From Escherichia coli (GTDB lineage Bacteria; Pseudomonadota; Gammaproteobacteria; Enterobacterales; Enterobacteriaceae), in assembly GCF_003334765.1 (NCBI RefSeq), contig NZ_QOWT01000083.1: a DNA stretch of 1,198 nucleotides; one strand, written 5' to 3'. A program made the position numbers and the translations under genes. The first letter of the stretch is position 1; every line of letters begins with the position of its first letter. Shown piece by piece: positions 1-1,198 of the stretch. Under the pieces are notes generated by a model, which saw nothing but the letters and a program-made list of their open reading frames with translations, did not search any database and was not told the origin of the DNA.

Positions 1-3
1 TAA

Positions 4-19
4 GGAAGGTGCGAATAAG
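4..19. repeat. IS5 terminal inverted repeat, transposase-distal end (16 bp, GGAAGGTGCGAATAAG)
   Basis: Matches the reverse complement of 1183..1198 at 15 of 16 positions (mismatch at IR position 13, window position 16: T here versus C at the other end). Complementarity does not extend inward beyond 16 bp. Confidence 0.9.
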
Positions 20-149
20 CGGGGAAATACTTCTCGGCTGACTCAGTCATTTCATTTCTTCATGTTTGAGCCGATTTTTTCTCCCGTAAATGCCTTGAAC
101 CAGCCTATTTAGACCGTTTCTTCGCCATTTAAGGCGTTATCCCCAGTTT
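20..149. promoter_or_regulatory. Non-coding subterminal region of IS5 downstream of the transposase; AT-tract-rich, candidate for the bent-DNA/IHF-binding region reported for this end of IS5
   Basis: Seen in sequence: no long ORF; several T/A runs (e.g. 'catttcatttctt' 48..60, 'gatttttt' ~73..80, 'agttttta' ~145..152) and an 11-bp palindrome TGACTCAGTCA at 39..49. Established knowledge: the transposase-distal end of IS5 is reported to carry an IHF site and intrinsically curved DNA that can activate adjacent promoters. I could not locate a clean IHF consensus (WATCAANNNNTTR) by eye, so exact site placement is unresolved. Confidence 0.3.
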
Positions 150-1175
<1,026 letters not shown>

Positions 1176-1182
1176 TCAGGGA

Positions 1183-1198
1183 CTTGTTCGCACCTTCC
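1183..1198. repeat. IS5 terminal inverted repeat, transposase-proximal end (16 bp; + strand CTTGTTCGCACCTTCC)
   Basis: Reverse complement GGAAGGTGCGAACAAG pairs with 4..19 at 15 of 16 positions. The element terminus coincides with the last base of the window. Confidence 0.9.

Follow-up and report, generated by a model that had tools for sequence, protein, structure and literature searches.

A TAA flank beside a complete Escherichia coli IS5: very probably a remnant of the target site, in a record whose layout fits a collapsed repeat

The window, by which we mean the whole stretch of 1198 bases that was analysed, is the entire source record, and it consists of the bases TAA at 1-3 followed by a complete copy of the insertion sequence IS5 at 4-1198. 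The three flanking bases are very probably a remnant of the site into which IS5 inserted. Our best explanation for the layout as a whole, which we regard as probable though well short of secure, combines this target site with the collapse of several IS5 copies into one contig during assembly. A 4-bp YTAR target that is duplicated on insertion leaves eight bases of interest beside an element, four on each side. The record contains three of these eight, and all three fit. The final base of the record is also the final base of IS5, and the right flank is therefore missing from the whole record, not only from the window. An earlier note on this DNA, made from the letters alone, had warned that the duplication could not be confirmed within the window. 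That caution was well placed, as the record stops at 1198 bases and both the fourth target base and the right flank lie outside it. The features of the window are collected in Table 1.

Table 1. Features of the 1198-base window, numbered from its first base.
Feature	Positions	Strand	Remarks
Flank TAA	1-3	.	Very probably bases 2-4 of a YTAR target (here YTAA); 42 of 106 flank-free junctions end in TAA
IS5, complete, 1195 bp	4-1198	-	Transposase runs right to left; 99.9% identity to E. coli IS5 records
Transposase-distal inverted repeat (IRR in the standard orientation), GGAAGGTGCGAATAAG	4-19	+	16 nt; end identical to K-12 IS5A
Non-coding stretch from the inverted repeat to the transposase stop codon	20-149	.	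Holds the private base C100
Transposase gene, InsH type, 326 aa	150-1130	-	Same protein as RefSeq WP_000019402.1
Transposase-proximal inverted repeat (IRL in the standard orientation)	1183-1198	+	The window closes on its last base

The element is IS5. Every IS5 feature that is testable in the record is present, namely the length, the terminal repeats, the transposase family and near-identity to the reference element. The outer ends enclose 1195 bp, which is the length of IS5, and the element is colinear with K-12 IS5A without a gap. The repeat that starts at position 4 has its partner, CTTGTTCGCACCTTCC, at 1183-1198, and 15 of the 16 bases are complementary in inverted-repeat pairing (16 nt, 94%). 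These are 16-bp imperfect terminal inverted repeats of the form GGAAGGTGCGAA(T/C)AAG, and the ends are identical to those of the annotated K-12 IS5A. Aligned over its full length (1-1198), the window is 99.9% identical to sequences in many complete E. coli genomes and plasmids, all of them annotated as IS5. The K-12 MG1655 copy IS5A/insH1 (NC_000913.3 273955-275149) has the same 1195 bp, the same terminal repeats and the same transposase architecture. It is identical to the window at 1190 of 1195 positions (99.6%), and the five substitutions fall at window positions 29, 100, 310, 552 and 1145. The earlier note's naming of the element as IS5 is borne out by the 99.9% DNA identity, by the five mismatches in 1195 positions against IS5A and by the score of the transposase against its family model, given below.

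The near-identity to the reference element marks this as the same insertion sequence and not a relative of it. Members of the wider IS5 group, found in Edwardsiella anguillarum and in several prophage contigs at about 93-96% identity, have the same length, the same 21-nt end and the same YTAR 4-bp duplications, mostly CTAA-IS-CTAA. They are, however, 4-7% diverged, and the window is clearly E. coli IS5 proper and not one of these. The biological weight of the record is small, since IS5, its inverted repeats and its YTAR duplication are textbook knowledge. All three were known before this work, and the only departure from them in the window is one non-coding substitution.

That substitution is a C at window position 100; all other IS5 copies examined carry T there. 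It is the only difference between the window and the commonest E. coli variant of IS5, the one that encodes WP_000019402.1. Neither the 8,390 places searched in 5,426 complete E. coli genomes nor the 2,357 searched in plasmids contain C100. The base may mark this lineage alone, or it may be a consensus or sequencing error.

The element carries a single DDE transposase of the IS5 family. Its protein scores 365.5 bits against the NCBIfam model NF033581 ('IS5 family transposase'), for which the cutoff is 140, and its Pfam domains are DDE_Tnp_1 (3.6e-35) and DUF772 (6.3e-21). In the list of open reading frames, the minus-strand frame at 150..1166 is uninterrupted and spans 338 aa. The 326-aa version in Table 1 is the one annotated by RefSeq, placed here by the RefSeq CDS coordinates (150..1130). 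The frame remains open for a further 12 codons upstream of the annotated start (1131-1166, minus strand), up to an ATG at 1166. On the evidence of its sequence, the window is three flank bases joined to a complete, apparently intact and apparently functional IS5. On the plus strand, opposite the transposase, two further open reading frames of 88 and 98 aa are predicted at 199-465 and 558-854. A scan of the window for sigma-70 promoters found none, and an Rfam search of the window found no family. The terminator scan gave one site where 1.1 are expected, which is chance level. The same is true of the IHF consensus WATCAANNNNTTR, with a single match in the window that carries one mismatch and lies at 1174-1186, at the other end of the element from the flank.

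To read a flank of three bases one needs to know what stands beside IS5 elsewhere. We collected junctions with patterns taken from the IS5 end that contain no flank bases, and in this way selection on the flank was avoided; we call these junctions flank-free. The sources were metagenome contigs, searched with a 27-mer; species-representative genomes and viral and prophage contigs, both searched with one and the same 21-mer; and K-12 IS5A. The other ten K-12 copies were left out, as the pooled sample was judged sufficient. The 27-mer had no match in the species-representative genomes; K-12-type copies differ at window position 29, within the pattern. The 21-mer found copies there. Once duplicate junctions had been removed, 106 non-redundant junctions were left.

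The boundary between flank and element at 3/4 is real. The 106 independent junctions, which come from unrelated contexts, agree inward from G4, and outward they diverge upstream of position -4, with a conserved 4-mer between (window position 4 is +1). In most complete copies this 4-mer is repeated directly after ...CACCTTCC, at the far end of the element. We also considered whether TA(A/G) might be part of the element, as an extension of its inverted repeat. This is ruled out by the non-palindromic 4-mers CTAA and TTAG, which recur directly on both sides.

The conserved 4-mer was CTAA at 34 of the 106 junctions, CTAG at 24, TTAG at 22, TTAA at 7, CTTG at 5 and CAAG at 3, with other 4-mers at the remaining 11. 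The pattern YTAR thus describes 87 of the 106 (82%), and 18% are non-YTAR. By position, -4 is C at 71 and T at 32 junctions (C/T at 103/106), -3 is T at 101/106 (95%), -2 is A at 98/106 (92%), and -1 is G at 58 and A at 43 (A/G at 101/106). Beyond -5 the composition of the 106 flanks is close to the background, and from -9 outward it is that of the background. This sample agrees with the motif (C/T)TA(A/G) that Lee et al. 2016 (PMC5009759) obtained from 220 reconstructed new IS5 insertions. The sample shows no significant orientation bias between CTAA and its reverse complement TTAG (34 versus 22, binomial p = 0.14).

TAA itself stands at 39.6% of the junctions (42/106), against 2.3-2.4% of the 3-mers in the distal flanks, and the likelihood ratio in favour of a target is about 16.5. 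TAG is found at 44% of the 106. The earlier note's reading of the TAA that abuts the repeat at position 4, as the last three bases of YTAR, agrees well with these numbers. It could still be that the three bases read TAA by chance and have nothing to do with target choice. Three bases are little to go by, about 2.3% of distal-flank 3-mers are TAA in any case, and 18% of real junctions do not fit YTAR. The likelihood ratio of about 16.5 for the target model, together with the T at -3 in 95% and the A at -2 in 92% of junctions, makes coincidence very improbable. As a single observation of three bases, TAA is consistent with the target and is supporting evidence for it, not proof.

The base that precedes the TAA is outside the record. 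Of the 42 flank-free junctions with TAA, 34 have C before it, 7 have T and one has A. The E. coli copies nearest to the window, at 99.9% identity and chosen for having TAA as their flank, occupy nine distinct sites, six with TTAA and three with CTAA. Judged from these sequences, both CTAA and TTAA are realistic for the target site of the window.

The DDE transposase of IS5 binds the terminal inverted repeats, and the ends of the element are joined to cuts in the target that are staggered by 4 bp. Repair of the resulting gaps duplicates the 4 bp. The TAA of the window would then be the inner three bases of a 4-bp YTAR site that was cut with a 4-nt stagger by the transposase and duplicated at insertion, and it would adjoin the transposase-distal inverted repeat of a complete IS5. 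In the flank-free sample, 19 of 30 complete copies have a perfect 4-bp direct repeat abutting GGAAGG...CCTTCC. Where the left flank is TAA the share is higher, with perfect repeats in 11 of 13 flank-free copies and at 7 of the 9 closest E. coli sites (18/22 together). The earlier note had stated that IS5 is reported to insert at 4-bp YTAR-type targets and to duplicate them, and both halves of that statement are upheld here, by YTAR at 87/106 junctions and by direct repeats in 19/30 flank-free copies and at 7/9 TAA-selected sites. The TAA of the window very probably arose in this way.

Matching repeats are missing from 11 of the 30 flank-free complete copies and from 2 of the 9 closest E. coli sites. 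Seven of these 13 non-matching copies have YTAR on both sides, e.g. TTAG/CTAG, CTAG/TTAA and TTAA/TTAG. This is expected where two IS5 copies have recombined and swapped their flanks. The earlier note would have taken flanking 4-mers that are not direct repeats as evidence against its reading, which is too strict. Non-matching copies mostly still have YTAR on both sides, and a mismatch is therefore a sign of rearrangement, not a sign that TAA is unrelated to the target. K-12 IS5A, in prophage CP4-6 (positions 3956-5150 of our locus L019), has no target duplication, and its flanks, TTAT and GGAG, are non-YTAR; this copy must have undergone rearrangement or replacement of its flanks.

The TAA of the window might accordingly come from a rearranged copy with a different 4-mer on its other side, such as a hybrid formed by recombination between IS5 elements, a cointegrate or the product of an adjacent deletion. 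Such copies exist: they are the 11/30 and 2/9 without matching repeats, most with YTAR on both sides. One pair of copies described below has the flanks of an inversion, and Lee et al. 2016 (PMC5009759) counted 98 deletions between IS elements in their lines, with IS5 copies among them. We nevertheless consider this origin improbable for the window. The duplication is intact in 18 of the 22 complete copies with a TAA left flank, and some of the apparent mismatches come from metagenome contigs that are possibly chimeric (L010 and L018, below).

Three of the loci with unusual flanks are worth describing. In the contig IMGVR_UViG_2851268780_000001 (L083) there is an inverted pair of IS5 copies, at 2387 on the plus strand and at 5310-5330 on the minus strand, with flanks CTAG-IS-TTAG and TCAG-IS-CTAG. 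These have the form X-IS-Y and Y'-IS-X, as expected from an inversion through recombination between the copies, and Y and Y' differ by one base. In two other contigs, L018 (OGDL01000538.1, 519-5121) and L010 (ERZ791810.2107, on the reverse strand), the same 3.35-kb segment, which encodes a MobV-family relaxase (158.8 bits), lies between two direct IS5 copies. Its inner junctions are CTAG-IS5 and IS5-CTAG; the outer flanks differ, being TTAA and TTAG. The segment looks like a small mobilisable plasmid into which one IS5 has inserted normally, and its joining to another IS5 flank is either a cointegrate or a chimeric assembly path through the repeat. In Shimwellia pseudoproteus (L039, NZ_WBXP01000011.1, 309-1503) an IS5 is flanked by CTGG and CCAG, which are reverse complements of one another and not direct repeats, and which lengthen the inverted repeat by 4 bases. 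This may be chance, or it may reflect insertion at a palindromic site that has since changed.

We now turn to why the record should begin three bases before IS5 and end exactly with it. Such a record does not resemble a piece cut from a genome, but short-read assemblers do turn multi-copy repeats into contigs of the element alone. From its layout, we think that the record is probably a repeat-collapsed contig of this kind, which extends up to the point where the copies begin to differ. If the source had at least two IS5 copies with the duplications CTAA and TTAA, their left flanks would agree for three bases and their right flanks (C... versus T...) for none. The TAA would then be the part of the target common to several copies, and not the flank of one insertion. 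On that reading, the layout of three shared left-hand bases and no right-hand ones (3/0 for short) would be an indirect sign that the copies differ in their first target base, and do so in step at the two ends, as is expected of intact YTAA duplications.

This layout is reproducible. When real E. coli copies with CTAA and with TTAA are combined in a de Bruijn graph, the repeat unitig is exactly 1198 nt and reads 'TAA', then IS5, then nothing, at both k=21 and k=31. With identical duplications the outcome changes: the unitig from two CTAA copies measures 1204 nt and that from two TTAA copies 1203 nt, and each gains bases at both ends. The record is the repeat alone, it ends where copies would stop agreeing, and it is matched by the simulated collapse. 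Repeat-collapsed IS contigs in short-read draft assemblies have been described by Adams et al. 2016 (PMC5343135), and the window is likewise the element alone, ending where copies would diverge.

The contigs that hold the flanks of IS5 in other assemblies have a related look. Most of the public flank contigs that we fetched stop at a fixed distance into IS5. Those assembled with SPAdes contain 55 IS5 bases, or 81 (26+55) where the copy has a variant at IS base 26 (window position 29) that sets it apart from K-12-type copies. The 55 bases would be consistent with assembly at k=55.

How often the 3/0 layout should arise was computed under the empirical distribution of 4-mers. Its probability is 0.15 for two copies in the source, 0.095 for three, 0.023 for five and 0.0003 for ten. 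The layout is thus a frequent outcome at low copy number, and it suggests a source with about 2-5 IS5 copies in which CTAA and TTAA sites are mixed. Among 3/0 outcomes in the pooled sample, however, a common TAG (from CTAG and TTAG) has about double the probability of a common TAA. A 3/0 layout with a shared TAA is thus plausible, not favoured.

The simplest competitor is a single IS5 insertion with an intact YTAA duplication, in a record that was cut for some unrelated reason, e.g. extraction driven by annotation or trimming with a 3-base offset. The evidence for the target also speaks for this account: perfect 4-bp repeats are found in 11/13 flank-free and 7/9 closest E. coli copies with TAA, and TAA is about 16 times commoner at the junction than in the background. 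A person or a tool that trimmed to the element with an offset of three bases would also have left a record of identical appearance. Yet a single insertion leaves unexplained why the record ends on the last base of IS5 and starts three bases before the first. Besides, an IS5 present in a single copy would normally assemble into its surroundings, and this record has only 1198 bases. We hold a single insertion to be rather unlikely.

An origin of a quite different kind would be a circular or tandem junction form of IS5, with the ends of the element joined by a 3-bp TAA spacer and the molecule linearised at the junction. Some other IS families do form circles with a few spacer bases. Such a form, extremely improbable here, would carry the junction ...GCACCTTCC-TAA-GGAAGGTGC..., and if true it would be direct evidence of a circular or tandem intermediate in IS5 transposition. 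What speaks for it is the length, 1195 + 3, by itself. The window, however, lacks both wrap-around sequence and an end-to-end junction, the junctions that we examined in the fetched loci included no such form, and in the simulation repeat collapse explains the same layout in full.

Repeat collapse, our preferred reading of the layout, has a practical side. Where a record is made up of an IS and nothing else, a collapsed repeat is the likeliest origin, and its few flank bases then describe what the copies share and not one site. The questions of duplication and of IS-mediated deletion that the earlier note wished to settle from the neighbouring bases cannot be answered from such a record.

Finally, the junction sample holds two minor observations on the choice of target. 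Outside the 4-bp site a weak bias is present (n=106): C is under-represented at -8 (9/106), and A at -6 (44/106) and G at -5 (36/106) are over-represented. The chi-square p of each is about 0.001-0.003, uncorrected for the 12 positions compared, and the bias may come from a wider target preference or from the sampling. The four YTAR sites also appear to be used unequally, at 27 insertions per 1000 available sites for CTAG, 4.5 for CTAA, 3.0 for TTAG and 0.33 for TTAA. These rates are indicative only, as the site counts in the denominators are those of E. coli K-12 (Lee et al. 2016, Table 5; PMC5009759) and the junctions come from many species.
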